Assembly: GCF_028641065.1 (NCBI RefSeq)
Contig: NC_073409.1
Location: 11,408,001-11,472,000, forward strand
Direction: 5' to 3'
Length of the DNA: 64,000 nucleotides
Origin: Leucoraja erinacea
Lineage: Eukaryota
This document shows, piece after piece, positions 1-47,603 of the stretch. The notes under the pieces are model-generated. The model searched no databases. It was not told the DNA's origin and worked only from the letters and a program-made list of their open reading frames with translations. Every line of letters starts with the position of its first letter. Within the stretch, counting starts at the first letter, position 1. A program made the translations under genes and the position numbers.

Positions 1-690
1 CATGGGTGAAGCCACTTAATAAATTCCTGGAACTGTCATCTGGATTCTAGAACACTGTTTGGTGTCTTGTCATTTCATTAAATCTGATATTCACTCGGAA
101 CATCACTGCCTAGCCAAGAGGTCCTCTAGCAGCTGCAGGGTTTGAAACACTTCTTCCTCAGATATTACATTAGTAAACCTTAAACCAGCTGAATCCAACA
201 CAGTTCCTCTGTAAAGCTTCCTATTGAAGGGTTTATGTTGCGGCCCACAGCTCCCAGTGGCTCTTGTGGCCAACGCCTTCCTGTTATCTAATCTTCCAGT
301 CACATTCACAGCCGAGGTTTGGATTGAGGTGGGTAATTTTGAGCCGTAACTCCATCCATGGCTCAGTTATTGGCACGATAATAAGATCATATGTCATCGA
401 ACCAGAATTAGGCCAATTTTCCCATAAAGTCTGCAAGGCCATTCGATCTTATCTGTACTTGGGACTTTGGACTTTTTTTTTTACATGAACAAATGTTTTT
501 TAATGTAATTGTTTTTTGTTAATTATGTTATATAAGAGGTTACCATGGTTACAGACCTTTATGTTGCTGCATTTATATGCTGCTGTAAGTAATAATTTAA
601 TTGTTCCGATCTTGATACACATGGCAATTAAATACTCTTTACTCATGACATAATATAGAGAACAAGACTGGAAAGTTTAACAAATTCAGT

Positions 691-696
691 TTTAAT
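691..696 (-). terminator. Candidate polyadenylation signal (ATTAAA) of the selenoprotein gene
   Basis: Plus strand tttaat = ATTAAA on minus, about 80 nt downstream of the SECIS hairpin. Confidence 0.55.
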
Positions 697-776
697 GAAA
701 GTGACAATATGACAGCAGGTTATCTGTGTACAACAGACTGACCAATGACAATGTTTGCAGCAGATCCCAAACAGGG

Positions 777-854
777 GAAGCACCGTTTCTGATTTCTGTT
801 CATGTCTTCACCACCAGCTTTAGGGGAAAACAATCATTGACAGAATGGAGCTTC
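777..854 (-). promoter_or_regulatory. SECIS element (selenocysteine insertion sequence), probably type I
   Basis: Minus-strand RNA: GAAGC U CC A UUCUG-UCA-AUGAU-UGUUUUCCCCU-AAA-GCUGGU-GGUGAAGACA-UGAA-CAGAAAU-CAGAA AC GG U GCUUC. AUGA core at 837-834, 11-nt helix II arm, apical AAA at 821-819, GA at 801-800, and a long helix I. Confidence 0.85.
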
Positions 855-980
855 ATCAATCTGAACCGTAAACTGATGTCAGGTTCCTCAGTCTCTGCTA
901 TAATACAGTGCAAGTTTTCTTCTTGATCGTAATGTTCTCCCCACTTATAACGTTCTGCATCAATCCATCCCTCGCTGCCT

Positions 981-1049
981 TCACTGCCGCAATGATCTGA
1001 GGGAATTGGAGACAATATTTTGTACACAAGAGCCAACAAAGTCCAAAAG
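981..1049 (-). CDS. SELENOW2: Rdx-family selenoprotein (SELENOW2/MIEN1-like), exon 4 (terminal): LLDFVGSCVQNIVSNSLRSLRQ*
   Basis: Acceptor tttgtgtttttcgaag; phase 0 matches exon 3. LLDFV resembles the LIEAI helix that starts MIEN1 exon 4. SECIS and ATTAAA follow downstream. Confidence 0.65.
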   Translation of the reverse strand, partial: LLDFVGSCVQNIVSNSLRSLRQ

Positions 1050-2224
1050 CTTCGAAAAACACAAACATTGTTATTGTCAGAGTTTCTCTCTCACACGTTG
1101 GAGGCTGGCGGACATGTTCAAAGATAAATTAATTCAATGTGTATCAACATGGACTGTGGACACGGGGCAATCCTAGAAAAGGCTGCTCGCTCCGTGTGTG
1201 CACCCTCCCTCTGAAAATGACCATTGTTACAAGTTGGAGAAGGACCAGGCACTCCTTCCTCAACGTGTCTCAACTGCATTTCGTTCTCTCTGTACTGTAC
1301 ACTGACAATGACAATTAAAGTTGAATCTGAATCTGAATCTGAATCGGTCTCCTGATTCAGTAGTATTGGGAATAGTTCTTTATCTATTTTCCAATCCTAT
1401 CCCTTCATACCCTCAATATTTAAACATGAATCATTTGGCACCATCAGTAGTCACCAGGGTAGAGAATTCAGAAGATTCACTGCTCTCTCAGTGAAGACAT
1501 TTCTTCTCTTCCCGCCCTAAAACCATGGTCTCTTATCCGGAGACTCTGCATCGCCCCAGATTTCAACCTGACAAACAGCCACGACCCTGACCGTGAAATC
1601 CCTTCACACAGTTCTTTCTTAATGAGATCATCTGTCATTCTTCAGTGCTGCAGATCTTTGTTAAACTCCCCTTGTGATGCAGCCCCTCATCCCCAGAATC
1701 AATCCAATGAGTATACACTGCACCGACAAGGCAATATTTTCCTCCGTCCCTCTAGTGGTGCAAGCCCTGAACTAGCTCAACAAATCCGTCTTATTTTCTT
1801 ATTTCTGCATCCCACACCCTTACTGTAGCCAGGGGTTTGCCTGGATTAGAGGACTTCAGTTATGGTGAGAGATTGTATAGGGTGGGCTTGGTTTCCCTGG
1901 AGTGAAGGGCACTGAGGGGGTGATCTGATGGGCACTGTTTGGAGAGATTGTTCAAATCTTGTTCCCATGGTAGAGGATATTAAAAATGCCAAAGGTTTAG
2001 AGTGAGAGGAATGAGTTTTAAAGGAAATCTGAGGGAGGATTTGTTTTGTTACACAGAGTGGTTGATATCTGGAATTCACTGCCAGAGGAGGCGGTGGAAT
2101 CTGATACAATCACTATATTTAAGATACATTTATATGAACTTTAATATGGAAGGCATAGAAGGATATGCAGGGATCTCTGCTGAGACCTCTGCTGTTTGTG
2201 ATATATATAAATGACTTGGACATA

Positions 2225-4540
2225 CAGTGTATTCAGAAAGTATTCAGACCCCTTCACTTTTTCCACATTTTCTTATGTTACAGCCTTATTCTAAAATTGA
2301 TTAAATACATTTTTTTAATCAACATACATTTTTTTAATCAACAACCTACACACAATACCTCATAATATAAAATCAAAAACAGGTGTTTAGAAATTTTTGC
2401 AAAGTAATTAAAAATAAATAACTGAAATATCACATTTACATAAGTATTCAGACCCTTTGCTATGACACTCAAAATTGAGCTTCGGTGCATCCTGTATCCA
2501 TTGATTATCCTTGAGATGTTTCTACAACTTGATCGGAGTCCACAAGTGGTAAATTAAATTGATTGTACATGATTTGGAAAGAAACACACCTGTCTATATA
2601 AGGTCCCTGCAGAGCAAAAACCAAGCCATGAAGATGAAGGAATTGTCCGTAGACCTCCGAGACAGGATTGTATCGAGACACAAATTTGGGGAAGGGTATA
2701 AAACAATTTCAGCAGTGTTGCAAGTCCCAAAGAGCAGTGGCCCTGTCATTTAAAATGGAAGAACTTTGGAACCACCAGGACTCTTCATAGAGCTGGCTGC
2801 CCGGCCAAACTGAGCCCAGCCAAACTCGCTCAAGGAGAAGGGCCTTGGTCAGGGAGGTGACCAAGAACCCGATGGTCACTCTGACAGAGCTCCAGAGTTC
2901 CTTTGTGGCAATGAGAGAAACTTCCAGAAGGACAACTATATCTGCAGCACTCCACCAATCAGGCCTTTATGGTAGAGTGGCCAGACGGAAGACACTCTTC
3001 AGTAAATGGCACATAGGCACTTGACACTTGGAGTTTGCCAAAAGGCACCTAAACAAGATTCTCTGGTCTGAGGCCTGAATGCCAAGCGTCACGTCTGGAC
3101 GAAACCAGGCACCGCTCATCACCTGGCCAATACCGTACCTACGGTGAACCATGGTGGTGGCAGCATCATGCTGTTGGGATGTTTTTCAGCGGCAGGAACT
3201 GGGAGACTAGATAGGATCGAAGGAAAGATGAACGGAGCAAAGTACAGAGAGATCCTTGATGAAAACCTGCTCTAGAGCTTTCAGGACCTCAGACTGGGGC
3301 GGAGGTTCACCTTCCAACAGGACAACGAACCTAAGCACAAGGCCAAGTCAATGCAGGAGTGGCTTTGTGACAAGTCTGTGAATAGACAATAGGTGCAGGA
3401 GCAGGCCATTCGGCCCTTCGAGCCAGCACCGCCATTCAATGTGATCATGGCTGATCATCCCCAATCAGTACCCCGTTCCTGCCTTCTGCCCATATCCCCT
3501 GACTACGCTATCTTTAAGAGCCCTATCTAGCTCTCTCTTGAAAGTATCCAGAGAACCAGCCTCCACCGCCCTCTGAGACAGAGAATTCCACAGACTCACA
3601 ACTCTCTGTATGAAAAAGTGTTTCCTCGTCTCCGTTCTAAATGACTTACCCCTTATTCTTAAACTGTGGCCCCTGGTTCTGGACTCCCCCAACATCGGAA
3701 ACATGTTTCCTGCCTCTAACGTGTCCAAACCGTTAATAATCTTATATATTGCAATAAGATACCCTCTCATCCTTCTAAACTCCAGAGTGTACAAGCCCAG
3801 CCGTTCCGCATATAACAGTCCCGCTATCCCGGGAATTAAACTTGTAAACCTACGCTGTACTCCCTCTATAGCAAGAATGTCCTTCCTCAAATTAGGGGAC
3901 CAAAACTGCACACAATACTCCAGGTGTGGTCTCACTAAGGCCCTATACACCTGCAGAAGGACCTCTTTGCCCCTATACTCAACTCCTCTTGTTATGAAGG
4001 CCAACATGTCATTCGCTTTCTTCACTGCCCTTCAATGTCCTTGAGTGGCCCAGCCAGAGCCCGGACTGGAATCCCATCGAATATCTCTGGAGGGACCTGA
4101 AAATAGCTGTGCATCGACGCTCCCCATCCAACCTGACAGAGTTTGAGAGGATCTGCGGAGAAGAATGGGAGAAATTACCCAAATACAGGTGTGCCAAGCT
4201 TGTAGCTTCATACCCAAGAAGACGAGGCTGTAATCGCTGCCAAAGGGCCTCAACAAAGTACTGCATGAAGGATCTGAATACTTATGTAAATGTGATATTT
4301 CAGTTATTTATTTTTAATTATTTTGAAAAAATTTCTGAACACCCGTTTTTACTTTTTTAATATGGGGTATTATGTAGAGATTGATGATTAAAAAAATGAA
4401 TTTAATCCATTTTAGAATAAGGCTGTAACGTAACAAAATGTGGAAAAAGTGAAGGGGTCTGACCACACATTTCACTGTACCAATTGGTGCAGGTGACAAA
4501 TAAATGTATCTTGTATCTTGAATACTTTCTGAATGCACTG
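2225..4540 (+). mobile_element. Tc1/mariner DNA transposon with a degenerate transposase and an internal CR1 insertion
   Basis: TA-flanked ~230-bp inverted repeats (CAGTG.ATTCAGAAAGTATTCAGACC). Transposase remnants include [23 protein letters not shown] and FQQDNEPKH, with frameshifts. Confidence 0.9.
3384..4033 (-). mobile_element. 5'-truncated CR1 LINE inserted in the Tc1 transposase
   Basis: ORF 3465-4025 is a CR1 ORF2 C-terminus ([13 protein letters not shown]). The Tc1 sequence gtgaat/gtccttgag is split around it, with an apparent aat duplication. Confidence 0.9.
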
Positions 4541-5575
4541 TAAATGTAGACAGGTTGGTTACTAAATTTGCCGATGACACCAAGTTGCTGGTGTCGTGGA
4601 CTGTGAAGAAAACTGCCAAATTATACAGTGAGATAGGTTAGCTAGAGAAATGGGCAGAGAAATGGCAGTTGGAGATTACTTTAAGCAAGTGTAAGATGTT
4701 AGACATAGGGAGATAAAATGTAAGGGGAAAATATACGATTTATGGCATACCTGTTATTACCATTATAGGTAGGACGTGGAAGCTTTGTAAAGTGTACAGA
4801 GGAGGTTTACCAGAATGATGCCTAGCTACAGGGAAAAAGGTTGAACAGACTTAGATTGTTTCCTCTGGAAACCAAAGGTTGTGGGGAGATCTGATAGAAT
4901 TATGAGAGGCATAGATAGGGTAGACAGTCAGAACCTTTTTCCATGGAAGGAAAAAATAAATAGTAGCGGGCATAGCTCTAAGGTGGGAAGGGCAAAGTTT
5001 AGAGGAGTTGTGCAGCAGTAGTATTTTTACAGACAGTGATGAGGGCTTGGCAAATAAGACCCTTTTGGATAGGCATATGGACATGCAAGGAATGGAGAGA
5101 TATGGATTACATGCAGGCAGATAACAGTTGGTCTTGGCATCATGTTTGGATTAGACTTGTGGGTTGACAGGCATGTTCTTGTGTTTTACTGTACGATGTT
5201 CTATGATACAATTCTATTGTGCGCTAATGGGTTTAGCGAAGATGACCAAAAAGGTTCCATAGGCATGCTGGGCAGAAGGGCTTGTTGTGTGCTGTACAAC
5301 TCTGACATTAACACCATTTGGTTCCTATCTGCCTGCTACTTCTTCATTGCATTTATACTGGGTATATATTTTGGCAGCACTGGTGTTGAGTGTATCTGTA
5401 GACATTTATGGCCAGATTGAATGATGGGGAGGTGGCCACCATCTTGGGTCTCCTGTAGAGAAAGGGCTGCATGCCCCCTGCTACTGTGACATCCAAACGC
5501 TTCCTCAGGGAGTTCAAAAATGTTCACTAAGATCATGGCTTAAGAGTGAGCAACCTTCCCACTTAACAATTAATT

Positions 5576-5825
5576 GCGGCACGGTGAGATAGCGCTTGAT
5601 CTACTGCAGGAGACCCTGGTTTGATCCTGACTACGGGTGCTTGTCTGTACGGAATTTGTACGCTCTCCCCGCGCCCTGCGTGGGTTTTCTCCGAGATGTT
5701 CGGTTTCTTCCCACACTGCAAAGACGTACAGGTTTGTGCAGGTTAATTGGCTTGGTGTAAATGTAATAAAATGTCCCTAGTGTGTAGCGTAGTGTTAATG
5801 TGCGGGGATCAGTGGTTGGTGCGGG
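5576..5825 (+). mobile_element. tRNA-derived V-SINE-like element
   Basis: A/B-box-like head followed by the V-domain core ctgcgtgggttttctcc...ggtttcttcccacac..caaagac. Confidence 0.75.
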
Positions 5826-5827
5826 CT

Positions 5828-5832
5828 GGGGG

Positions 5833-5874
<42 letters not shown>
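5828..5874. repeat. Poly-G tract
   Basis: A run of about 45 G; may be a sequencing or assembly artefact. Confidence 0.8.
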
Positions 5875-5875
<1 letters not shown>

Positions 5876-6217
5876 GAGACATTCAGCAGTGGTTCTGTGG
5901 TGCATCTTCCTGCTATTTTATGGCCTAGAATTCACTGATGAATCTGGACCTTTGAGTGGGAATTAATTGAATGTGAAGGAGAATCATTTAGAGGATATAA
6001 TGAGGACAGAGCAGAAAATAGGACAGTTGAAATTACCAGGCGCCCACATGTTTCAATGGATTGAATGTCCTACGATTACTCTGAGGCAGGTAGCTCAGTA
6101 TTCCTGGGAATAACACCTTAATGACACTTCAGGGTTCTGGATGTGATTATACCAACACATGCCGACATCGCATTGTTCATATTACTGAAAAAACTGCTTT
6201 CTAACTCATTTACTCAC

Positions 6218-6294
6218 GTCGCCATGGTGAGGGAATGTATTTGATTGCAGTTTAGAGAAAACCAACTTATTGTTAATTGTAACTTCAAAACTTC
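6218..6294 (-). CDS. SELENOW2: Rdx-family selenoprotein exon 3: GSFEVTINNKLVFSKLQSNTFPHHGD
   Basis: Acceptor ctcctcag, donor gtgagt, 77 nt, phase 1 to 0. Contains the Rdx signature GxFE(I/V)x(I/V)N...VFSKL...FP. Confidence 0.92.
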
Positions 6295-6839
6295 CTGAGG
6301 AGACAAAGAAATATAATTTGCAGCATTTCACAAACCTGATGCAGTCTCTGCCCAAACTGAAATTGGTTTAAACAGCTGGAGTTCAGGGGGAACTGGCCTC
6401 ACCCTGAATGCTTCACCTGTGTTAGACCATGATAGGCTGTGAATTATAGCTTTATCATCTTGGTTGAGTGTATTAGTTACTTCAATGGGCCGAGGAATGG
6501 CAGACGGAGTTTAATTCTGATAAATGCAAAATGTTGCATTTTGGTAGCATAAACCAGGGCAAGACTTACAATGTAAATAATAGGGCTTGGGGAGTGGAGT
6601 AGAAAGAGACCTAGGGGTGCGGGTATATAGTTCATGAAACTGTTGACATAGGTTGATTTGGTGGTGAACAAGATGTCTGCCATGCTTGCCTTCATCGGTC
6701 AGGGTATTCATTATAGACGGTAGAGACAAAATGCTGGAGTAACTCAGCGGGACAGACAGCATCTCTGGAGAGAAGTAATGGATGATGTTTCGGGTCGAGA
6801 CAGCCAATCCCCCGACATCAGTCTGAAAAGGAGCGGCTG

Positions 6840-8095
6840 ACTCCCCTGGAGCCATGTTCTGCTTGGGTAGTTTGAACATTGAAGGAACAAGGAACTACAA
6901 AAAAAATGTCACAAGGTGCTGGAGTAACTCAGAGGGTCAGGCAGCGTCCTTTGAGAACAAGGATAAGTGACGTATTGGGTTGGAACCCTTCTTCAGACTA
7001 ATTTCGGGGGAGGGGGAAGAAAGTTGGAAGAGAGGAGGGGCAGGACAAAGCCTGGCAGGTAATAGGTTGATGCAGGTGAGTGGGCTTTTTTTTAGGCAAA
7101 CAGTTAGAAATTAGACGAAAAGATGAGATGAAAAGTAAATCAAAGGAGAACTGTAGAGGGTGAGGACAGGTTCCGTTGGCCGAGAAGAATGTTCATAAAA
7201 GGAAATTGATTGGTCTCTGTTCAAGGAAGAACCGGGGAGCCTTTAGATCTTCTTGATAGGGGGTGGAGGTGTAAAGGGGCTAGATGCCCATGGTAAAAAT
7301 TAGGCGATAGGGTCCATGAAACTGAAAGTTGTTGAGTTGAAAGGCGTGTGAGGTGTCACCACCGATTTAAGTCAGAAAGGACTGGTCGGGGGGGGGGGGG
7401 GGGGGATAGGATGGAATCAAGGTATTTGGAGGTGAGTTCTGTGGGGCAGGAACAATGGGTCTGCCAGGGCAGTCTTAACCGTGGATTTTGAGAAGGAGTT
7501 AGAAGCAAGCAGTGTGGGGCTGGGGTGTGTTACATTTGGAGGCTGTGGAGGGAGATGACCAGAGGTGATGAGATCAGAAACAGTCTGGGAGATGATGGCC
7601 TGGTGTTCGACTGTACGATCACGGTCGAGGGGTAAGTCGGGGGTATCCGAGTGCTGGTGCCTGGTCGACGGGTTGAATTTGTATGAACATTGAATTCTCC
7701 AATTTTAGATAATTCCCCCCTTCTCCTCCCACCCTATCTCCCCATGTGCCCCATCTGGATATTCCCCTATTTATCCACCAACCCTCCCCTTCCACCTACA
7801 TTCCTCCCTCTAGCTTCACAATTCGCAACTCTTCAATCTTCTTGTTGCACACCTTCTGTCTTTTCATCTCTGGTCTTTGAGCACCTGTCAAAAACACCCT
7901 CACCTGTAATCCACCTATTACTTGCCAGGCTTTGTTCTGTTCCTCTTCTCACTCGACCCAACAATCAGTCTGAATAAGAGCCCTGACCCAAAACGTCACC
8001 TATCCACATTCTCCAGAGATGCTGCCTGACCTGTTGAGTTAGGCCAACACTTTGTGTCTTTTTATGTAAATCAGCACAAGCAGGTTTCTTGTTTC
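6840..8095. mobile_element. Penelope-like retroelement remnants with inverted terminal segments
   Basis: Inverted copies of the gatgctgcctgacc..gagttactccagc terminal motif flank a degenerate minus-strand coding fragment. Confidence 0.55.
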
Positions 8096-8427
8096 TACAA
8101 TTGCCCAAGACATTGGTACGGCTACATTTGGAGTACAGTGTACAGTTCTGGTCACCCTGTTAGAGGAATGATGCCATTTAACAGGAAACGGGTGCAGAAA
8201 AGATCTATGAAGATATTACAGGGGAGGAGGGGGCAGAGGTTGTGGAGAGGTTGTTCCCTGGGAACCAGAAGGAGGTCAGATATCAAGGTGGTCCCAGTGG
8301 TGATGATCAGAGCTGTTTCAAAAGTCAGGGGAGCCTCTGAGTTGGCGAATAAAGAATCTAAATGAGATGCGATTCTTACAGAACGTTGGGCAAATTAAAG
8401 CCTGCATTATGTGATAGGTCCACTCAC

Positions 8428-8525
8428 CTTTCTGTCCTATGAAGCCGGTGATGTGCGCCTCTGGAATTTGCTCCTTAATCTCAGTGGCAAGGAACAGGAA
8501 ACGCGCCAGGAAGCCTCATCCGGCA
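8428..8525 (-). CDS. SELENOW2: Rdx-family selenoprotein exon 2 with in-frame Sec UGA (8518-8516): (C)AGUGFLARFLFLATEIKEQIPEAHITGFIGQK(G)
   Basis: Acceptor ctctgtccccag, donor gtgagt, 98 nt, phase 2 to 1. Completes the CxxU motif, and Rdx-like similarity continues past the UGA. Confidence 0.92.
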
Positions 8526-9071
8526 CTGGGGACAGAGTGTCAGAATGACAAGCGGCACTAGCGCCATCCGCCCCACAACCCGCTGTCCCAGTGAGTGACG
8601 GTGGAGGCAAGCCCTGCTGGCTGTACTTACCCCTGATTAGCTCAACAGCATTGATGTTGAACTAATCTGCACTATCTTGTAGTCACAGTCCAGCCACAAC
8701 CAATAGCCCATAATACTCGGAGAATGCAGCCGCTGCAACTCAGGAACAGCTTCTTGCCCTCTGTTATCGTCTGAATTTGTAGTCTGCAGGGCAGTACTCT
8801 GCATATCGCCAACTTGTCCTTCATACCCTTGGATAATGTCAGATTCACCTGCACCCTTGACATGGACGTTGTCTCTGGAACTGGTGCACTAAACTACACT
8901 ATATATTCTATCCTTTGCTCTATCTATTGAGTTTGGTTTGATTGTATTTATGTGTAGTAATATGTGATGGGATGGGACAAAAGGCACAACAAAGCTTTTC
9001 ACTGTACCTCGGTGCACGTGACAATAATAACCCTAAACCAATTCCCGGGACGGCAGACACACCCCACTCAC

Positions 9072-9211
9072 CAGTACTCCACCTTGACATCCACTTTGTG
9101 TTCGCCTTCGTACATGCCCCCAGCCAGGCTGCTTTCCGCCAGGCTTTGTTGGCTTTCCGTGGGGATATCATCATAAGGCGGGACGCCGCAGCCACATCCA
9201 CAAGGCCTCAT
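9072..9211 (-). CDS. SELENOW2: Rdx-family selenoprotein exon 1: MRPCGCGCGVPPYDD...GGMYEGEHKVDVKVEY(C); start uncertain (ATGs at 9376, 9211, 9115)
   Basis: Ends TAC TG|gtgagt; TG plus the first T of exon 2 gives Cys. VKVEYC is the typical SELENOW2/MIEN1 first strand. ATG 9211 has A at -3. Confidence 0.8.
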
Positions 9212-9400
9212 CTTCCAGGCGACGACCGCCACCTGAGCCCGGGGCCCCGTTGACGTCCCGGGGTCTCTTGTGACCACTCGCCGCCCAGAGCCGCGCACAG
9301 CCAGGCAGGCACCACTGACGTTGCCCCACCCGAGACCGTCCCAGGCCCAGCGGGTGGTTTGCAACACACCGGACATCGAAGCCAGGCCAGCACTTTGAAT
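9100..9400. promoter_or_regulatory. CpG/GC-rich 5' region of the selenoprotein gene
   Basis: High GC and CpG density over exon 1 against an AT-rich background. Confidence 0.5.
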
Positions 9401-9939: not shown

Positions 9940-10200
9940 GTAGCCAGGACGGCAGCTAGGACAGTGCCCTTCCTGCTGGAAGTGGTAGACCAGGGAAACT
10001 TCCAGTGTTCCCGCTGACTACACCTGTGGGCAACGTGTCCAGTTCCAGCTCGTAACTGGTGGCATTGAGTGGCTGGAAGTGCAGTTGGACTCATCCTGGA
10101 CCGTGATGCTGAGAGCGTCATAGGTAGGAATTTCAATGAGGTCGTCACACCAGGTAGACGAGTAACTCCCAGGAAAGGCAGAGTGTTAGGTATGGAGTGC
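9940..10200 (+). mobile_element. CR1 ORF1 (zinc-finger/leucine-zipper region) remnant
   Basis: Degenerate CPSC..W...VPADYTCG...QL......LEVQLD pattern, resembling CR1 ORF1. Confidence 0.55.
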
Positions 10201-15068: not shown

Positions 15069-15190
15069 CTAAATCATTAGGCGTAATGAGTTTCGTACAT
15101 CTTTGGTACCACTGCCAGACTGGATTGCAACTTCTACATCATCTTGAGCTAGTACCACTTTGTCTGGCGTATAATCATTCCTTTTGATAT
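15069..15190 (-). CDS. TRPM7: TRPM7 last coding exon [11 protein letters not shown]...SLRLMI*
   Basis: Acceptor cttag; TAG stop at 15071-15069. Confidence 0.93.
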
Positions 15191-16590
15191 CTAAGCACAG
15201 AAAATAAAATATGACATTGATTATGCAACGGATCAAAAAAAAGTTAAAAAGATTAACTTGCCTCCATGTCTGCGGAAATAGGGAGGAATGACTCAACAGC
15301 AGATGTTTATCTATATCCTGCCACCTACAGCAATATTTACTAAAAGGCAGATTAAACCCATCATTCGTTTCAGCAGTATGTTTAATCATCTGTATTTCTC
15401 AATTGGTTTGGAAGGAAATTCAAATGATCAGAAACATCCGAGGCAAATTATAATGTCACAGAACATATGGGCCACCAGTATCAATGAGGTCTTTAGAGAT
15501 GCATCCATTCACAGGATAGGATAGCAAATGTATTATATCAGATGAAAATCATGAAAAAAAAATGGATTGCTGGAAATCTGAAATAAAAATGGGAAGTGCT
15601 CGAAGGAGTCAGCAGGACAGGCCGTGGGAAAGAAAAGAGCGTTGACATTTCAGATCTCAGAGCTTTGACAAAAAGTTTTGGACCTGAAATATTAACTGTT
15701 TCCCCTCACAGCTTGACCCAAGTGTTTGCAGCATTTTATGCACAGTCCATTAGTATGTTTCACTGATTTATGAAAATCCGACATCTGTTCACACAGTTGT
15801 AAGAGTTGGGATGTGATGTTGCAACTGCGCAAGATGTCGGTGAGACCACACGTGGAGTATTTTGTGTAGTTCTGGTTGCCATGTTATGAGGATGTGATTA
15901 AAAGAGGGTACAGAAAAGATTCACAAGGAAATTACTGAGACTGGAGGGCATGACTTATATGGAGAAACTGAATAGGTTGGGCCTGTTTTCCCTGGTGCAA
16001 AGGAGGCTGAGGGGTAAAGGTTTACAAAATCAACAGGGGCAGATCAGACTTTAACCACATCAGTGGAATCTAAAACTAGGGGGCAGAGATTTCAGATGAG
16101 ACGGGAGGGATTTTCCACACTGAGAGTGGTTGGTTTATGAAACAAACTGCCTTAAGAATTGATAGAAGTGGGTACAATTACAATGTTTAAAAGGTACACG
16201 GATAACAAAGGTTTAGAGAAAAATGGGCCAACACAAGTAAATGGGAGTAGTATGGATGAATTGGATCAAAGGGCTGTGTAATTATGACTCTAACTTTGAC
16301 CTCTGGATCAAAAATATTTTCCATACATACACACACTTATCTACCACAATAAATCCACACTGGCTCATGTATTCTGGACAGATTTTCCAAAATGCTTAGT
16401 GTGCAGCAAATGTTACATAGCTACAGTGAAATGGGTTTATTGGGACCACTAATGCTGTGTGGAGTTTGTTTGGTCTCCGTAACTGCATTTTTCCTGGTGA
16501 TCTATATCCTGAATACTTTTTGGATGGCAGGTTTACTGGCCACTATTAATTGCCCCAATAGTACATGATGATAGAATCAGGGGGGGTAAT

Positions 16591-16631
<41 letters not shown>

Positions 16632-19600
16632 AGATACATTTGAGGAAATTAAGTGGGAGAATGGGATTAAAGGAATGATCAAGACTCATCCCTTGAGTCC
16701 TTTAATCCCAGTCTCCCAATTCATGTGCTGAATTAGCTCTCTAGGACATATGTAAATATACAAGAGAATTGAGTAAAATTTCATAAACTGAAATTAATCC
16801 AACAGATGTATTATTTCTCTGAACCCCCCACATCACCTTCATACCCTGTCTTATCACCAAGCTTCAATTTCATCTTTGACTTGGAAAAATGTGAAGACAT
16901 GTTAAAGGCAGCTTGTGATCAATCTAACAGAACGCAGAGAACGACAAGGGGAAGAATGTTTCACTGAGACAACAACGTACTGTGGAAAGGAGGGATTCAA
17001 TGATGGGCAGAAAGGAGAACAACCTGGAGGCGTGCATGTATTTAATGAAAAAGAACAGCCGAACATGTTTTCAAGAATTGATAGCAGCAGAATATGAGGC
17101 AACAAGGGTAAATATTTAATCTTTTTGCTGGGTGCACCAATAATGGCACAACAAAGTGTCTCGCTGGATCATTTAAGAGATCATTTATACGATAGTTGAG
17201 ATTGACCAACAAGTTTGTTGCAGGGAAGGAAAAAAGGGTCTAAAGTAAAATAAAAATTGCAGCAATTGCATTTGGATATTTTGACCAAATGCACGTCACA
17301 CCAGCAGAGAGATCTTCACATTATTATCCAATTTAATATCCTTTAGGTCAGGAGTCGGCAACCTATGGCCCATGAGCCGGATCCGGCCCATAACCCGAAA
17401 TTATCTGGCCCGCAGGCGTATTTTTCCCCCCGTCATCTAGACTTCTTTAGACTGTTTAATACAGTGACATTTAATATGGCCAGCGACATAAAGGCTTGCT
17501 TTAATGCTCCTAGCAATCCTGTTTGTGGATACAAAAAATCCGAACTGATATAATCTCGTGAACTGGGCAAAAGGTTAATTGGATTGGTGGACGTAGTTCC
17601 ACTGATGTAAAAAGTAGGTATGTTGCAAAACCTACCTTAAGCGTCGCTGCAGATCTGTCCCAGCCCGTGTGTGCGATTATGGTGCCGTTTAGAGGGGGGG
17701 CGGGTTTAAAACACGATTTTCCCTAGGCTATTCAAATCGAGCTTGTTCAGTCGACTTAGTTGCTGACGAAAAATCGCTGCGAGGTTTGGTCGCTGGAGCT
17801 ATTTTTACCTTTTTAGGGTTTATTTAATTATTATAGCAAGTTAAAAATTAACCTCTAAACCCGCGACCGCCGACAACGGGCCGGATCTCATACAGGGGAC
17901 AACGGAAGGTAGGTTGTTTATTTTTACATTAAAAAGCGCTTCTTAAGATCCCTTTATACAAAGTTTAATGTTGCGAGTAGCTAATTTGGGGCCCCATTAA
18001 ATCCCGCAGTATTTTTCTGGCCATTTGGGGTACAAATCTACCGCAATGTGAACGTTCTAAACCAGCACGCTTTCCACAGGATCCCACTCGAAAGCCGATT
18101 TAAATGGTCATTAATTTACAGCAATTGAACACTAAATTCCTTCCATTGGGCCTATAAATTAATGTAAATGAGATTTAAAAATCATGTTTTATTGTGAATT
18201 CTTTGTGAATGTTATTTGGACACTTAGGCTATTTAAAAAATGTTAATCTTTTTTTAAGAAATGGATAGATGTTTAGATCTAGTAATTGAAGTTTGGAATT
18301 AGCTACAATTGGGTAACTAACTAATTATATGCTTTAATTTCAGGTCATCCAAGTAAGATTGTTTTATATTTGTTTCAGAATGCTTCAATCTATGATAACT
18401 GAAAATTTCATTCAGTTCTCTTAATTTTTGAGAAAGTTATGGGCTTTTGACTGTCCACGATCACAGCTTTTTTGTTATGTCCATAGAAAATCAATAGGGA
18501 ACAAGATGCTAATTTCCGAGTATGAAAATGGCCATAACATTTTTAATACTTGAGATATGAAAGTGAATTAGGTGTCAAATTAAACTACTTTTTATGCTTT
18601 ATCTGATGGGATAAATTGCAGACTTGATTTTTAAAATCTCAAAATTTTGTAACATTGCTAGTAAAAGTGTAGTTACAGTTGCAGCGGCTGTGGTGCCTGA
18701 TGCACAGCGCGCCTCCGAGCCCGGGGGAGGGTCAGGGCCAGGACCGCCCTCTTCAAAGATAGCGGCGCTGCCGGCCGTTGGTTCGTGGACACGCCAGACA
18801 GGAATCCAGCGGTAAATGGACGGGATTGGACCTTGGAGAGGAGAGAGGTGGGGAGAGGTGTAGAGAGGGAATGGGGAAAGTGAAGTAAAGAGGAGAGAGG
18901 GGGTGAGGAGAGAGGAGAGGGGGGGGGGGAAGGAGAGAGTGGGGGGGGGGGAGAGAGGAGGGAGGAGAGGTGGTGAGAGAGGGGGAAGGGAGAGGGGGAG
19001 GAGGTGGGGGAAGAGAGGGTAACAAAGGGTCTGCATGAAGTTTAGGACAGAGGGGTGAGAGTAGTTTCAATACCAGTGTCTCAAACTAACTGCTATGTTC
19101 GGAAGTCATAATATTGCTTAAATATATAAATATTTATATATGTGGCCTGCCATCCACTCACAGGCATGGGTCCTGGACCCTATGCAGAACAAGGTTGCCT
19201 ACCCCTGCTTTAGGTTAAACGTGTATTTAGTTGTGTAACACCAAATGGCTTTCTTCATAAATATATTGTGGTAATGAACCATCTAGTTCAGCCCTGAAAC
19301 TCAATACTTAGATATGCTGCATTAGCTAAAACCCAGACTTAACAGCTCAAAGCTGACCACAATAACTTTCCAGGTGTGAAGCAACTCCAATGCCACAGTT
19401 GCTGCTTGAACGGAGGAATAAGGATTTCATCAGGATTCTACCCATGATCCAAACATCCCAGTTATTGTGCGGCTCATCACAGGGGTTTCAGGGTTTGTAC
19501 GGTAATGAGTCATTGCTCACAGAGAGAAAAGATTTAAGAAAAATAATGATAAAATCTTACCAGGAAGTTTAAGTCTCCCACAGCAAGAATTACAATGGTG

Positions 19601-22600
19601 TTTTGATCGAAAGTTTTTAACCGCATCTTCTCCCAAATTGGCAGGTCCAAATACCATGTCATGTGACCTGAAAGAAACAGCGTAAACTTGGATATTGCAG
19701 TCACTTACAGAATGCTGGTAACAATGCGTTAGCTTAAAGTCTGTCTGCAGATTCACCTCCAGCAAGAAGAGGTAGGTGACTCGTGACCTTCATGAATGTG
19801 GAGCAAAAGCCTGAAGGACCAACTCCCATTTCTACTGCTCTTCCATATGATAACATTTTTAGATTTAAGGAATCCAGGGATAACATGTTAAGTGTTAGCA
19901 CTGAGGGGAAAGTAGCACTGAGATAAACACCACAGTACAACTGGGCGGTGAAGCAGGTGTGTTCCTTAAGCTTTATTTAGTAAAACTTCGAACAAAAAAC
20001 AAATAAAGTAACATCATTTTTTACAGAAAATGTAAAAAAAGATTGATTTACTGAGCTGGATCACAAATCCGCCAGAACACAGTGAATGTTGAAACAGCAT
20101 CAGGAGGAAATGACCTACTCCTGTCCCTATTTTGTAGTAAATCTTTTTTGCAACCTCTAAAGACTGACATTTTCCTTGAGTAATTTCCAGAAAGAAATAT
20201 GATTCTACTAATTTTCCTGCCAATAAATTGAAGTTACTGCTTGCCAAAGACTTTAGGTACAGATCACTGCACTCCCATCAAATTATGTGTCGTGGAAGGA
20301 GGAAAATTGATATTTAAATTAATACTCACTGTTTCTCCTCAGACTTTATTACCGAAGGATCAGTTAAGTTCTCCCCAACACCTATAAAAGTAAATATACA
20401 AAACTAGATTAAACTACCCCTCTTACAAATATATCAATGTAGAACATGAAATAAATGCACCTACTGGAAATAGATACAAAAATACTGAAAGCTAGGTCAG
20501 GCAACATCAGTGGAAAGGGAAAGACTTGATGATTCAGGTCCAAGACCCTTCATCTAATGAAAAGTCTGAGACCCAAAACATTATTTCTATTTATCTTTCC
20601 ACAGATGCTATTCATCTGCTCAATGTGTCCAGCGTGTTCTGTTTTTATATCAAAATGGATTTATGTCCTTCGAGCTTCAAGCTTCAATAGCAATGCCATG
20701 ACAAAGAAGCACGACCCCATTTAAATGCTATGGTCTTCACATTCAGTCAGCTTCAGTTTCAGGCTATGACATTTTTCTGATTGCACGTCCTATCACCATG
20801 GTAAATGTAAGGACATTTTGGATGCTGTTACTCGGTTCATTTTGCCTGGTGTTTGTTTTAGGTTTTGTGTCCAGACCTGTTCATGGCATTCATTCAACTG
20901 CTTCTCTTTCTCCCTTGTGTCAGCAAATGCTTTCATAACTTGTCTACATAATGGTAGTTTTCCTTTATTGTACACTTTAACAATTTAAGTTCCACTTTCT
21001 AGAGTGATTAGCAGCTTTGACAATAGTTGGTCTTATGCATAAAGTAGACGACATTATCAACACCTGTCAAATGTCTCTGCGTACTAATTATTTACCAGAC
21101 CCTATCATAGAGTTTACTTTTGGGGAGAGAAATCTGAAATACTGATGTCAAGCTGCATCCAAGGGATTTTTGTTAGATGGCCCGTTATAACGCGGGTTTA
21201 CTCTATTCATGTATAGTATTACCTGATTTGATTGAACCGCATGCAAAACCAAGCTTGTCATTGTACTTCGGTAAAATGACCATAATAAACCTAAACCTAT
21301 TGCTACCAAAAGAAAAGTTTCAAGTTTTTACAATTTATAATCCGTTTGAAACTGCTTAATTTTAACAGTTCAGAGTTCTGACATGATCATATATCAAAGC
21401 CTTTTAAAAATGATGACATTTGGAAGTTTAGAATCACCAATTATTAACTGTTTAAGAATAATTTAAAAAAAATCAGCGTTCACAACTAATATAAAGCTAC
21501 TTCACTTTAACAAAAGCTTATCGTACTCACCTTGCAAGTCCAGAACCAGTAGTTCACCTCTCGTATACTCATAGGTCCAGTGACTAAAGGCAAGCATGGT
21601 CTCCTCCAGCATGTTGTTTGGACGGATCTCATCACCACTGTTATGATTAAATTTCCGGAACTCCCCAGTCATACATTCTTCAATTGCAAACCATTGGCTT
21701 GCTGAATGACAATACAGAAGGAACACTTCCAGGAACCTGAGGTTAATCAGACATTTATTCAATATAACATAGGAAACAACTATACTATGTAACTATATAG
21801 ACACAAGCAATATAATGAATAATTATAGTGGTAGCAAACTAACTTACTCTTCCTGACAGATATTATAATTAAAAACTTATGCTTGTACTGTTAAGGAAAA
21901 ACATGAATTATTTCTCTTCTTAAGTGTCTTAAGGGACTGTCACATTAAAGGTGCTGCACAAATACACATTATAATAATAGAGCCAACCAACATGGAAACA
22001 GGCCCTTCAGCCTAACTTATCCATGTTAACCAAGTTACATCATCCAAGCTAGTGCCATTTTCCACACCTGGCCCATTTTCTTCTAAGCCTTTCCTATCCT
22101 GTACCTGTCCAAATGTGTTTTAAACTTTGTTATAGTACAACTACATCATCTGGCAACGTTCCATATACCAACCACCCACTGTGTGAAAAGGTTGCCCCTC
22201 GGATTCCTTTTAAGTCTTTGCCCTCTCACCTTAAATCTGTGCCCTCTAGTTCTTGATTCTCCCCCCAGGGATAAATACTATGCATTCACCTTATAGATTC
22301 ACATTAATAGATTTTCTTTCAGATACAAAGAATCAGGGAATATGGGGATAGTACACCGAGGTAAAAGATCAGCTATAAAATCAATGACTGGCAGAGCAGG
22401 CACAATGGGACAGAATGGTTTATCACTACTTCTGTTCCATAATGTGTACAATATTCCTCCTATCTTTCCATCCTGTAGCAATCGATGAAACTGTAAAGTT
22501 ATACCAATCTTGCCAAAAATAATACTGGGATGAAAATAACTGGCAATTGTTTTTAAAGGCATTCTTCTTCTGCTAGGGAAGCATGGCAAAAAAGCTCAGA

Positions 22601-25600
22601 AACCATCCATTTGGACCTGAAGACTCGGTCCCTCATTACTAATCAGATGATGATTCAGCATTCATGAAGATTGTGCATAATACCGTGCTTTTTTCAACAT
22701 AACAATGTTTGAAGGTCTTCTACAACATCAAATAACTGTCTGTTATATAACTCAAGCAAATCAATGTCACATTCAGCCTCCACAAGTATTGGCGGTTTGG
22801 TAATTAGGAGAAATTTGGTGAATTATTCCATTCTATAATTCTATCTACACTATACTTCTGTTGGTGTTCCATCTTCACACTGCTCTTCTAACAAAACTGA
22901 GCTATCAGAATTACAATTTAAACTTTAACTTTCTTTTGTGATTAGAAAATCGGAGGAAAGAATTTATAATGAAAAGTTGGAAAAACTTTATAGAGATGCA
23001 AGTTTTTTTAAAAAGTAGAGATTGTAGATGCCTACTCAATTATTTCTCCTCACCTTGGAGAGTATGGAATGGTCTTTGGTTTCATATGGTTGAAGGCAAA
23101 TGCGAGCTTCTGTGCAGCCCTCTGCTGCTGAATTTCCTAGAAACAAGAGATTGTCTGGTAACATGTTCTACAAATCTACAAGATAGCATCTGACATGTAC
23201 TGATTTGGCATTCCACCAAACCAGCAACAGTAGCCAGTCAGACAGCCTAACGTATGATTCTACAACTATTACGTAGAAAATCCCATAGGAAACACAATAT
23301 CCCTTTAAAGCACAAAACCACCCAGTTTCATTTAAAACCAAACTATATTCATCAATCCTGAATGGATCATGTTCTGCCAATTGCAGCACATCTGATATCA
23401 CTGGCCAGCATAACCCAACTACCGGTTTAGAAAGAAAAAATTGATTTTAGGACAGAGTAGTAATTATGTAGTGCAGTTTCTAGTAAAAAGCTGAAATCGT
23501 ATAATGCTTCCATTAACTTTGAAAATATAGTTTAGATTAAAAAAGAAAGTAGAAGACCTGAACAATCAAACATACAAAAATAAAGTTTCTCTTTCAGCAG
23601 TACCGTGTTAACTTTACCTCTTAAATAAAAGCATTAGGAATCATATCTGACAATTGCCAATTGAGGGAAATAGTCTTAAATCCTGACTTATTCAAGGACC
23701 ACTTCTGAATATTAAAAAAACTTTGTAGCAGTCTAACAGTAAGAAAATAGATCATTTGGCCCATAGTTCCCACTGACCACCTATTCTAAACCTACTCTAA
23801 TCCAATTCGATTTTCTCCACACTCCCATCAATTCAAAGCCTCACAGAGGCCATTTACAGTGGATAATTAACCCAACAACTACGCAGTCACAGAGGAACAT
23901 GCAACACCAGAGTCTATGGGATGCTACAATTAACAGCTCATTAGTATTTTAAAAAATCCCGTAACCTTCTCTTGCCCACTGAGCCAACATACAGTCCAAA
24001 TATGGATACGATGAGCACGTACCTTCAAACACAGATGTAATACAGTATCTTCCTTGTAGATTCTCTTCCACGTGTTCACTACTTCAGGAAGAAAGGATTT
24101 CACAATATACAGCTGACCTGGTTTTAATATATCAAACTCAGACCATGTGCACTCTACTTTTAAAGCTCGCCTCAATCCTCCTCCCATTTCTTCTTTACTT
24201 AAGAACTCAATCTTGGCACATCGGCCCTGTTGCGACCAGGAAGACATGCTGTTGTTCAGACTGACTGGTGAGCTCTCCTCAAGTCGATATATTGTCACAG
24301 GTTCACCTTTAACACAAAAGTGAAGCAAACATTTCAAAACAGTTCACTATTATAATAATAGTTTCAAGCTTTTCAGTATTGTCTCACTTTAATCAATTCT
24401 TCTGTCTAAATTGTAAATACAGCAAACTTCACACCAACTTTGTTTGGCTTAACTCCACAGATGCTGTCTGATCCCCTGGCTATTTCCAGTGATTACATTG
24501 GTTTCAGATTTCCAACAACTGGTAATAGAATCGTACAACATAGAAACAGGTTAATGTAGCCACCTTGTCCATGCTGATAGTGTTACCTATCTACACTAAT
24601 CCCATACATCATGCTTGTATTTCCTGTCCAAACGCCTTTTAAATCTTGAAGTTCCACCCACATCCAGCAGCTCCTCTGAGAGAGCATTCCTGATAATAAC
24701 CACCCTCTGCTTGAAAAACCTGCCCCTCAGAGCTCCCTTCTCGCCTTAAACTTGTGCTGTATGGTCCTAAACTCCCTTGCCTTGGGGAAAACACTGGCTA
24801 TATATTTTATCTGTGTCCCTCATAAATTTCTCCTCCATTTCATCTCAGGCCAGTAGGCAGCATTAAGACAACACTGCTCAAGATGGAGGAAAGAAGTCAA
24901 TACTACCCACTCTGACCCAAAGAGAATTATTTACATTGAATGGTTGGCAGCAGTTTGTCATTCTGCCATAAAAGAAGAGGAGGTGAAAATCCTCACTTTA
25001 AAAAAAGGTACAAGGCACATAATGCTGCAGATCTAGGACTGGGAAATGGTCTTAAGCCAGAAAATGTTTTAGAGGCATCACAGACGGTTCAGACTGAATC
25101 AATCATGAAATAAATGTTTAAGCCTCCGAAGTAGACCCAAAGTATAACACAATATTACATACAATTAACATCCAGTAGGTGGCAGTCTAAACCAAGTCTT
25201 CACTGCAAAGAAAAACAGTGTATGAAGTCCTGGTGTAAAATTTCATCTGTCCATTCCCTCCACAGATGTTGCCTGACCTCCGCTGAGTTCCTCCTGCACG
25301 TTGTTTTTTTTGTTGGACCCAATCATATAGCAGGGAAACAGGCTCTTCGGCTCAACTAGTAAATGCTGACCAAGATTCCCAATCAAAAGCTTGTCTGCAT
25401 TTGGCCCATATCCCTCTCAACCGTTCCTATTTTATCCAAGCGTCTTTTAAATGTTGTTTTAGTACCTACCTCAACTAACTGCTCTGGCAGTTCGTTCCAT
25501 ATACCAACCACTCTGAGTGAAAAGATTGCCCATCTAGTTCTTATTAAATCTCTCCCCTCTCATTTTAAACCTATTTTGGTTCTTGATTCCCCTACACTGG

Positions 25601-28600
25601 GAAATATAATCTGTGAAGTTACCCCATCAATTGCTTCATGAATTTATTCACCTCTATGAGAGCACCTTGAAGCCTTCGCCACTCTAAGGAATAAAGAACC
25701 AGCCTGCACAACCTCTCGCTATAGCTCCAACCCTCGAGTCCTGACGGACCTCGCAAATCTTGCCTGTATTCTTTCCAGCTTAACCTGTTCATTGCTAAGT
25801 TTTTTTTTCACTTGTATACTCTGATCAGAGTATAATCGGGGGTGGCACTGAACAGGTTAATGACATCCTTCCAAGAGCAGGGTGACCAAAACTGAACGCA
25901 ATACTTCAAATGCAGCCTCACCAACGTCTTGTACAACTGTAACAGAATGTCCAATACTGATAAAGGCAAATATACCAAAAGCCTTCTTTACCAGCCTATC
26001 TAGTGATGTCACTTTCATGAAACTGTGCACCTGTACTCCTAACTCCCTGTCTACAACATTCTGTCTTCATCAGAATATTGAATTTTGAAGTTGTGAGGTT
26101 ATGTTACTGTTGTACAAAACATTGGTGAGGCCACATTTGGAGTACAGATGCTCCTTGACTTACGATGCTTCGACTTACGATATTTCGACTTTACGATGGT
26201 GCAAAAGCATTACACATTCAGTTGAAACGGTACTTAGAATGTTGAATTTTGATCTTTTATGGCGATATGCGGTGCAATACTCTCTCGTGATGCTGAGCAA
26301 CGGCAGCGAGCCGCAGCTCCCAGACAGCCACGGATTAGATGGGGTAAATGCATGGAATCTTTTATTCAGAGTAGGGGAATCAAGGCGTAGGTTCAGGTGA
26401 GGGGGGAAAGATTTAATAGGAACCTGAGGGTCAACATATTACACAAAGGGTGGTGGATATATGGAGCCGCCAGAAGAGGTAGTTGAGTCATGTTCTATCA
26501 CAACGTTTAAAAGACATTTGGACAGGTACATGGATAGGATAGGTTTAGAAGGATATGGGCCAAACACAGGCAGGTGGGATTAGTGTAGATGGACCACGTT
26601 GGTCAGCATGGGCAAGTTGGGCCAGAGGGTCTGTTTTCACACTGTATGACTCATGACCCAGATCAACTAACAAGCAAATTAAGAGTAAGGGCTGAAAAAT
26701 TCTCTTGGACCTGATGGCCTGCATCATAATTCTTTAAAGTAGTGGCTGCAGAGAGAGTGAATTTATTGGGAGTGTTCTTTCAAAAATCCTTACATTTTGC
26801 AAACCCTCAAGGAAAACCTCTGAAAAAAAGAAGTTACTTTGCAAAACTTCAAAAACATTTTGTCTGGATGAGAGAGAGACAACCATAGATCCTGCGTTGC
26901 ATGAGAGGGAAGGTGTAGTAATCCCCAAATCAGGGAGAATGACAGGGGGAGAATCCTTTAAAAGAAGCTCTCTCATGGATCAGTAATCCCCTACCAAAAG
27001 ACTTGACCATTTATCTTAGTTGCCCCTTACAGTTTTATAAACAGGAGCGCAGCTGCCTAATACAGTCTCTCAGCGTAACCCCCTCCAAAAACATCCAAGT
27101 GAATCCCTTCTGTGCTTTGTTGTTACCATAGCCTTTCTGCTACAACCAGAAATATACGGATTACGTTAATAGCTATTGAAAACTTACTATGTCTTGTACT
27201 CAATAGCTCGGCTGATGAACGCAAGTATGCCAAATGCTGCCATCACTACTTTCCGTGAGCCATTGGACGTGCACTCCCAAGCGCTGCTGTATATTAACGT
27301 TCCAACAGTCCCTGCTGTGTACATGCATTAAGGAACATGAGGGGTACTGGTGATACTGGCAAAGCCACTATTTATTTCTAATCTTAATTTTCTTGGGAAA
27401 GTAGACAAAATACTGCAACATTTAATTTGAATTGAGGATGCCAGGAGCTTTCTGCACATCGCACTTTGTTTAGTTGAAGAGTTTTTCAGGAGAATACAGT
27501 CTCTCAGCGTAACCCAAAAACAAACATTACAGGAATTAATAGCTATTGAAAACTTACTATGTGCAGCAGTATGTTGGCTCCAATGTGAACAATAAAACCA
27601 AAGTCAAAGGGTTTTAGTCAGACAAGGGAAGACATTTTCCCACTGACTGAATAGATTAAGGAGGGCGAAAAGAAGAGCTGTGATTATTGAGTGCAAAAAG
27701 GTCAACTGTCTGTAACCTTAGTGCAAACAAACTGATAACTTTCAAAGTGACTAATGATTTCTGAAAACATATGGCCATACTGTCATTTAAACACGTCAAA
27801 AGATAAATGAAAATCAAGCAAAAATGACAACCGACAAAAAATAACAATACAAGAACAGATTATTGAAAACATTTGGGCATGAATATAGAAATAAAATTAG
27901 TTGCCAGAAATTACAAACATTGACTTTAAGATGCGACAACGTGCTTTATCCTAATCATAATGGCTGACAGAGCATAAACAAGATTTATATTTGCATTCTC
28001 AATGGAAGATACAAAAACCTGACAACAGTGGAACGTGTCAACAAGAATGGGCAATCAAGCGTTTTACATTTAGGTAAAAAGATGTGTCATTTTAAGTTGC
28101 CAGAAATTCTACTCACCCCTGTTTGGAAGAGGAGTAAATGGAATAGTCTGTGAAAGCCGCATCAAATTATTCCTCTCAACAGCTGTAAAGAAAGACACAC
28201 AGAGCACATCATTAGTCAAGTGAAACATCAGTTAAAGTAAACATGTATGAAGCTTAATGTTTAGTCACACTGACCTGAATAGTAGTAATTTACATCCAGT
28301 GCAGGTTTAAAAGGAGAACCAATCACTAAGAGGCAAAGGAGGGAAAAAGAGACATAGCACTTTTAAAATGAAACATAACAGTTCTTGCAAAAACAGTGAT
28401 GGTTTACTATTATAAATACGAGTCATATTTACACAAAGTAAAATAACTAAATTCCCCTGAAATTTTTAAATCTTTAAATGCTATTCATTTTGTTACAAAA
28501 CAAAACAAAATGACCAGCCATATAAAAACTGTGCTTTGAGAAGCTGAAAATATCAATATCATCTTACCTCCCATTTTTCTTTGCCTTGCATGAGATTGAT

Positions 28601-46600: not shown

Positions 46601-47556
46601 TAGGTGACTCTGCCTTCAGCTCCTTAGTTTGCTCTCCAGAATTTTTTCCATAAACCTTTCACACCGTAGCTCTGAGATCACATCTGTTTGACCAAATGCA
46701 AAGTCAATCCAAACTCTCCTTTTTGACTCAATGCCAATTTTCCCTCTTTAAGGGCTTATTTGCATTAAAAGGTTGCCAAAATAAAAACAAGTTGTTGCAA
46801 GTATTTTGCGCTGCACTACCATGACGAACAAGTTGTATTCATTTCGGAAGTTCAAGAAAAGCTCCATTTATGAAAGTAACAAGGTTTAGCCAAAAGGTTT
46901 GCTGAAAAAGTAGGCTTCAAGGGGGCCTTAGTGAATCGGAAAACAAAAGGAATTGAAGGACAGAATTACGGGGTGGGAATAATGACAGCCAATTAAAAAG
47001 CTATTAACAGCAAGGTGAAGAGTAAATCTCAAACTGCACTGCCTCTGTTGTACATTGCTATTGTACTTAGGCTGTGCTTGTGCCCCCTGGTTCCCACAGA
47101 ATTTAGATAATATACAAAACTGACACAATGTGCCCTTTTAATTAACTGTGTAACTGGAAGCAAGAATATACTCACTTGAAAAAGGCAATGAGAAGATTCA
47201 CCATGAGAATATACTGTACAAAGAGGTAGACGGCTTGTAAAAATGGCGTTATCCAATATCCAATGACACAGCGTTGCCTTGCACCTTCTTCAGTGTTGTT
47301 GGCACAGGCTTTATGTAGAAAGGAAATGCAAGGCTGACTAATATGGATTAATTGGAGACATAACAAGTGCTTTCTTTACATAAAGCTCTTCCAGCTAATG
47401 CAAACTTAAATGTTAATAGACAGCTGTACATTGTACAGTGTGGAAGCCCAAAGGATTTGCAATACAAAAAAACAAATATCCTGCAAAAACTGCCATCTTC
47501 ATCTGAGACTAACAATTGGCAATAGTGCTTTTCATCTCAAAAGGTCAACTTGTTTA

Positions 47557-47603
<47 letters not shown>

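Follow-up and report, generated by a model that had tools for sequence, protein, structure and literature searches.

The Rdx family of oxidoreductases includes two closely related groups, SELENOW2 and MIEN1 (also named Rdx12 or C17orf37), with which we compare a gene found in a stretch of 64,000 nucleotides of the genome of the skate Leucoraja erinacea (NC_073409.1, positions 11,408,001 to 11,472,000; referred to as the window). SelW2 was reported in 2012 as a selenoprotein in bony fish, frog and elephant shark (PMC3316567), and SELENOW2 has been recorded in amphibians, some ray-finned fish, jawless fish and invertebrates (PMC3316567, PMC13134290). According to the available text of PMC13134290 (Tico et al., 2026), the SELENOW2-branch genes of every ray-finned fish and amphibian tested lie near TRPM7, whereas amniote MIEN1, which carries cysteine (Cys) in place of selenocysteine (Sec), lies near GRB7 and ERBB2. 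This text assigns invertebrates, cyclostomes, amphibians and ray-finned fish to the SELENOW2 branch, as does the similarly worded preprint; it mentions a chondrichthyan MIEN1 and, in the part available, is silent on whether chondrichthyans have kept or lost SELENOW2. SELENOW (SelW1), a further relative, is reported in the same text as lost in cartilaginous fish and as linked to EHD2 and not to TRPM7. Prenylation and redox activity have been described for human MIEN1 (PMC6738349, PMC3527542), and it is for human MIEN1 only that lipid attachment and membrane location are shown in the available text (PMC6738349).

Our analysis indicates, with a probability of about 85%, that the gene beside TRPM7 in the window is the skate orthologue of SELENOW2, a four-exon Rdx selenoprotein of 105-137 amino acids with a C-A-G-U site and a CAAX box. 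An earlier note on this DNA had labelled the gene SELENOW2/MIEN1-like; the group was right, and synteny now narrows it to SELENOW2 rather than MIEN1. The family, the Sec codon and the TRPM7 linkage are already published, and the gene is an expected one that confirms the published model and brings no new mechanism.

Gene structure, C-terminus and family membership

The features of the locus, in window positions, are the following.

9072..9211, minus strand: exon 1, coding from ATG 9211 onwards; contributes strand beta-1 and bases 1 and 2 of the CxxU Cys codon
8428..8525, minus strand: exon 2, 98 nucleotides; remainder of the C-A-G-U motif, helix alpha-1 and strand beta-2
8516..8518, minus strand: putative selenocysteine codon TGA at the second position of CxxU, from the sequence and from the TGA at the equivalent position of a paralogue on contig C27
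6218..6294, minus strand: exon 3, 77 nucleotides; GSFEV motif, beta-3/beta-4 and FP turn; identical in XP_055517292.1
898..996, minus strand: exon 4 as corrected here, coding part; helix alpha-2, three lysines, CAAX box CTVL (codons 912-901) and stop TAG (900-898)
981..1049, minus strand: exon 4 as read earlier, from an upstream AAG acceptor; tail without CAAX, ending on TGA; a minor alternative 3' splice site at most
787..845, minus strand: selenocysteine insertion sequence (SECIS)-like element in the 3' untranslated region (UTR); AUGA core, apical AAA, opposing UGA, helices I and II; Rfam SECIS_1
691..696, minus strand: candidate polyadenylation signal ATTAAA, from the sequence only
15069..58540, minus strand: exons of the neighbouring gene TRPM7, with its stop at about 15069; alpha-kinase, tetramerisation, ion-transport and TRPM2-like domains

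The four exons as first described (9211-9072, 8525-8428, 6294-6218 and 1049-981, minus strand) all have AG/GT ends and compatible phases, and joined in this form they give 384 nucleotides (127 codons and a stop). For exons 1 to 3 the coordinates, splice sites and phases agreed with the four-exon structure proposed in the earlier note. Likewise, intron 1 divides the Cys codon of the CxxU motif and an in-frame TGA occupies 8518-8516 at the second position of this motif, both as previously proposed. In-frame ATGs of exon 1 are located at 9376, 9211 and 9115. A home-made family profile aligned only from about residue 40 of the corrected chain begun at ATG 9211, near ATG 9115, and since family homology starts there, ATG 9115 is the favoured start among the three. 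Two further ATGs of exon 1 are out of frame, one opening an 8-codon frame (9197-9171, minus strand) and the other, at 9174, the frame used by RefSeq; if translation starts at 9115, both would behave as upstream open reading frames. The neighbourhood of exon 1 is CpG-rich (bin 9001-10000: GC 0.54, observed/expected CpG 0.71).

A protein search with the exon-3 frame yielded one protein among two candidates, the 92-residue XP_055517292.1 of L. erinacea. It is letter-identical to translations of the window, including the whole of exon 3. This model reads exon 1 in a shifted frame from ATG 9174, omits exon 2 with its TGA and regains the family frame in exon 3, and its N-terminus shows no homology to the family. 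Four other elasmobranch models were compared, from Rhinoraja (XP_078283304.1), Chiloscyllium (XP_043529905.1), Hemiscyllium (XP_060708816.1) and Rhincodon (XP_048471728.1). Their homology starts just past the Sec position, and the CxxU site is missing from all five models, one from each of five species, which are named MIEN1-like in the databases. The expectation that ordinary annotation would mangle the gene was thus borne out. In two of the elasmobranch models the expected G right after the Sec position is replaced by C or S, as would be expected if splicing had used a cryptic acceptor, the AG within TGA-G; with a Cys codon this AG would be absent. The N-terminus of the Rhincodon model could come from a normal exon 1 read in a shifted frame. 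That of the Rhinoraja model matches unrelated, mostly longer proteins and seems to be repeat-derived, as if a transposon fragment had been taken as a false first exon.

The last exon most likely starts at 996 and not at 1049. A second acceptor, CAG at 999-997, lies behind a pyrimidine tract 53 nucleotides beyond 1049, and the exon beginning at 996 encodes 32 residues that end in CTVL before TAG, a C-a-a-L end of the CAAX type used as a substrate by geranylgeranyltransferase I (GGTase-I). This frame is letter-identical to the end of XP_055517292.1 and homologous to the other four shark and skate models, and all five carry a CAAX-type tail (CTVL, CVII or CVIV). The acceptor at 1049 and the C-terminus derived from it in the earlier note were not confirmed; that prediction followed the wrong frame at the C-terminus and so overlooked the CAAX box, and the 1049 acceptor may at best give a minor alternative isoform. 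The corrected protein has 137 amino acids from ATG 9211 and 105 from ATG 9115. The family profile, made from 61 relatives with the five elasmobranch models left out, gave 91.3 bits for the corrected chain, 78.6 for the chain as first described and 55.6 for the RefSeq chain, and for the tails alone 5.7 bits in the 996 frame and -1.5 bits in the 1049 frame, although its members had been picked for a CAAX-like end, which biases it towards the corrected form. A C-terminal Cxxx was present in 72 of the 108 Rdx-like proteins fetched (fragments counted).

The proposed membership in the Rdx family, within the SELENOW2/MIEN1 group, was supported by several searches. While the full spliced chain was scored with the home-made profile, the Pfam score comes from the exon 3 frame, which alone exceeded the cut-off for Rdx (PF10262; 29.6 versus 22.6 bits); the orthologues scored 29.7-47.4 bits. 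Both the N-terminal CxxU after strand beta-1 and the GxFE(I/V) motif (GSFEV) are present. The sole match in a PDB sequence search was human MIEN1 (2LJK), both for exon 3 (E 0.0002) and, weakly, for exon 2 (E 0.15), and no SelW chain was among these matches. MIEN1, the nearest PDB sequence, resembles the skate protein in the position of the redox motif and in its CAAX box, and probably in fold. For the two-layer thioredoxin-like fold expected of the family, a structure model of the Hemiscyllium orthologue, used as a stand-in although it lacks beta-1, had a predicted local distance difference test score of 80. Its top 10 fold matches were mouse SelW and bacterial Rdx proteins with probabilities of 0.66-1.00 and none at E<=0.001; mouse SelW (2NPB) was the best. 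CxxU and, presumably, the Rdx fold are shared with SELENOW/SELENOV as well. SELENOW is not known to carry a CAAX tail.

The in-frame TGA and the paralogue on C27

The Rfam model SECIS_1 matched the minus strand at 845-787 over model positions 1-64 of 64 with 21.6 bits (E 0.11), 52 nucleotides past the corrected stop, and folding of this segment alone gave a z-score of -2.10. The element had gone unmentioned in the earlier note. An ad hoc SECIS pattern, composed after the element had been seen, had five matches in 128 kb, one of them at this element, with about 0.008 expected per UTR-sized stretch. The remaining matches (309, 1690, 20329 (-) and 19792 (+)) were taken as chance background. In alignments the skate TGA falls on a Cys of MIEN1 (2LJK) and, in the C27 paralogue, on another TGA. 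Past this codon, exon 2 stays open and is conserved in skates and sharks alike, with homologous exon-2 sequence in the four other elasmobranch models. The earlier note had named loss of conservation past the TGA in orthologues as a refuting sign; at the protein level the chain downstream of the TGA is conserved to 81% in Rhinoraja, 59% in Hemiscyllium and 61% in Rhincodon. The UGA is presumably decoded as Sec, and the gene is putatively functional.

A genome-wide search with Pfam Rdx gave two matches over the cut-off among 11 candidates, namely the locus beside TRPM7, on contig C33, and one at C27:761 kb. Three weak matches (L003-L005, E 1.6-7) looked like chance on translation, and a genome search with exon 2 matched only itself. 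The second gene spans C27:752657-764642 on the plus strand (L002, L007, L008 and L019). It has internal exons of 98 and 77 nucleotides, a TGA in C-G-A-U and a CVIL end, and is only 39% identical to the gene on C33. The two exon sizes had been proposed as a mark of MIEN1/SELENOW2, which holds as far as the skate paralogue with the same sizes goes. A candidate SECIS-like stem of the C27 gene, recognised by eye and fold only, starts at C27:764986; Rfam listed no SECIS in this gene at E<=10. The 3' UTR of the C27 gene also contains a G run of about 70 nucleotides (L019, 376-445), either genuine or an assembly artefact.

Within about 250 kb of the C27 gene lie a BPS-domain gene (C27:674 kb) and an ERBB-type gene (C27:511-513 kb), which we read as GRB7 and ERBB2; no ERBB kinase exon was found within C27:705-835 kb. 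Matches to these two gene types occurred on C27, C2, C7 and C40 and none on C33. On C33 the gene order is USP8 (+), a UCH-family gene (-), the selenoprotein gene (-) and TRPM7 (-), the stop of TRPM7 being about 5.9 kb upstream of the selenoprotein gene on the same strand. We take the neighbour to be TRPM7 rather than TRPM6 from its C-terminal motif and from the USP8/USP50 neighbourhood. The UCH-family exons (C33:11395318-11401051, minus strand, L012 and L013) are read as USP50 (USP50-like). Since the GRB7/ERBB-type and TRPM7 neighbourhoods match the published linkages, the C27 gene is likely the MIEN1 orthologue and the gene beside TRPM7 is assigned to SELENOW2, so that the skate would have both paralogues. 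In the skate, the GRB7/ERBB-type neighbourhood houses the C27 gene, with its TGA, and not the gene beside TRPM7; the two agree in internal exon sizes.

To place the gene, 37 rows chosen from the fetched proteins were used for a main tree (82 columns) and 20 rows for a second one; labels of amniotes in these trees are a reading of the sequences. In the 37-row tree the five elasmobranch rows formed one clade at 99/99 on a long stem (0.73), and the C27 gene paired with a Mobula MIEN1-like protein at 99/96. Neither tree placed the elasmobranch clade within the jawed-vertebrate MIEN1 group (86/93 with 37 rows, 87 with 20 rows), and in the 20-row tree it joined two amphibian rows, with a Shimodaira-Hasegawa-like approximate likelihood ratio test support of 84. 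With SELENOW2 the skate gene shares the Rdx domain, CxxU with TGA, the TRPM7 linkage and, in these trees, the position outside MIEN1, and a CAAX-type tail is also found in the caecilian, frog and lamprey rows. It differs in its long branch, its identity of 40-47% to the amphibian rows and a tail that is 5-6 residues longer, with basic residues ahead of CAAX. The stretch after Sec is a hydrophobic F-L-A-x-F in the skate type, in contrast to Y-E-x-R-Y in most relatives.

Alternative readings

Several observations weigh against the assignment to a SELENOW2 selenoprotein. The SECIS_1 score falls under the Rfam gathering score of 35, an Rfam search of the window at the gathering threshold gave no match, and with flanks added to 845-787 the z-scores were only -0.79 and -0.98, which is not significant. 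The TGA was read in the skate genome only, the other species being compared as proteins. When four sequencing runs were mapped at 88% likeness over 300-9600, no exon junction was among the 15 joints listed of about 1,350, all 15 lying in repeats, as intronic repeats swamped the mapping; in this repeat-swamped mapping no start or end site was called over the same region, and depth was low in exon-containing bins (0-1.4 in two raw-read runs) and 0 in the intronic bin 5898-6208. Splicing in vivo is presumed. The join of exon 1 to exon 3 in XP_055517292.1 could also reflect a genuine exon-skipping transcript. If so, or if the gene were decaying, the TGA would be a true stop. This reading, which also draws on the low read depth and the sub-threshold SECIS score, appears very unlikely to us, since exon 2 is open and conserved past the TGA in skates and sharks, the RefSeq N-terminus is foreign to the family, as its lower profile score reflects, and the TGA falls exactly on the CxxU position with a SECIS-like element after the true stop. 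Equally small is the chance that the main product is the protein ending in the exon from 1049, without a CAAX box. An AG, a T-rich tract, a branch-point-like CTGAC about 30 nucleotides upstream of 1049 and a fitting phase speak for it, but its acceptor is AAG, whereas 996 has CAG and a pyrimidine tract, no homologue matches its tail while all five elasmobranch models use the 996 frame (with the profile test biased as stated above), and the protein would terminate on a TGA upstream of the SECIS. It is extremely improbable that a Cys codon was misassembled as TGA and that the protein is an ordinary CxxC Rdx. The codon was indeed read from the assembly and not from raw reads; however, a Cys codon would have allowed full gene models, yet the models from all five species avoid the site, and the SECIS-like element is present.

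The origin of the gene raises a further alternative, namely that this selenoprotein gene arose in cartilaginous fish by duplication of MIEN1 and came to lie beside TRPM7, and is not an orthologue of the fish and amphibian SELENOW2. An approximately unbiased (AU) test did not reject such a duplication, keeping a clade of C33-type and C27-type chondrichthyan genes (log-likelihood 7.0 lower, p 0.227), the stem of the elasmobranch clade is long, and the database names of all five models point to MIEN1. In addition, the grouping with amphibians is unresolved in the careful 37-row tree, and 82 columns do not settle orthology. However, a duplicate would have had to arrive independently in the very neighbourhood that marks SELENOW2, both trees place the clade outside jawed-vertebrate MIEN1, and the identity to the C27 paralogue is low. 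We therefore regard a MIEN1 duplicate as unlikely and retain the assignment to SELENOW2.

Surrounding features, proposed working and significance

Further features of the window and its surroundings concern mainly repeats. A 153-nucleotide imperfect inverted repeat (82%) at 9644-9796, a common interspersed repeat, lies about 430 nucleotides upstream of ATG 9211, and intron 3 contains a 47-nucleotide G run (5828-5874), a genuine tract or an assembly artefact. Mobile-element remains in introns comprise frames resembling long interspersed nuclear elements at 3465-4031 and 41454-42230, which are 77% alike, and a DDE_3 match at 3998-4360; the frames at 35625-36086 and 45336-45964 are presumably also transposon-like. 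A long low-complexity C-rich tract adjoins the UCH-family exons in L012. Within TRPM7, a 454-codon open frame (38937-40301, minus strand) carries a long serine-rich linker as well as the TRPM tetramerisation domain; it seems to continue past the point where the exon usually ends, perhaps as an alternative extension.

We propose that splicing joins the four exons and enters exon 4 at 996; the sites are present in the sequence, and their use is suggested by homologues and database models. The 3' UTR SECIS, despite its sub-threshold score, would bind SBP2 and eEFSec, so that UGA is read as Sec, as expected from eukaryotic Sec biology. Cys and Sec of the C-A-G-U site would then form a redox pair. 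By analogy with human MIEN1, CTVL would be geranylgeranylated, trimmed and methylated and, together with the three preceding lysines, may anchor the protein at the cytosolic face of a membrane, where it could reduce or isomerise disulfides of membrane-proximal proteins. In a bolder view, alternate use of the exon-4 acceptors 1049 and 996 could turn this membrane anchor off and on.

A literature search, light on subscription journals, found no paper on prenylation or geranylgeranylation of SELENOW2 and none on selenoproteins of L. erinacea. The elephant shark SelW2 of 2012 may be either paralogue under the 2026 naming, and a gene of the skate type may already have been counted in related species in PMC13134290. 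The gene model at this locus is now corrected, and an equivalent error is flagged in four other shark and skate entries, the active site being lost in all.

More tentatively, and at rather less than even odds, sharks, skates and rays in general may retain an overlooked, fast-evolving SELENOW2 by TRPM7 alongside a Sec-containing MIEN1, a gene mangled in all five database models and left unnamed for these animals in the text of PMC13134290, the largest survey of vertebrate selenoproteomes. If the two genes arose by duplication at the base of the jawed vertebrates, both Sec-type paralogues are expected in their respective neighbourhoods, and the skate would provide one cartilaginous fish in which each lies in its subfamily's defining neighbourhood. 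For MIEN1, the GRB7/ERBB-type neighbourhood, reported for amniotes only in the available text of PMC13134290, is now seen in a cartilaginous fish. If true, such a general retention of SELENOW2 would add one gene to the selenoproteome of cartilaginous fish and would directly confirm that the split between SELENOW2 and MIEN1 is older than that between sharks and bony fish. It would also point to a class of lipid-anchored selenoproteins, combining Sec with a CAAX box, of which we found no description in the literature searched. This layout would be the natural Sec counterpart of the cancer-linked human MIEN1, suited to comparing Sec and Cys chemistry at the membrane.

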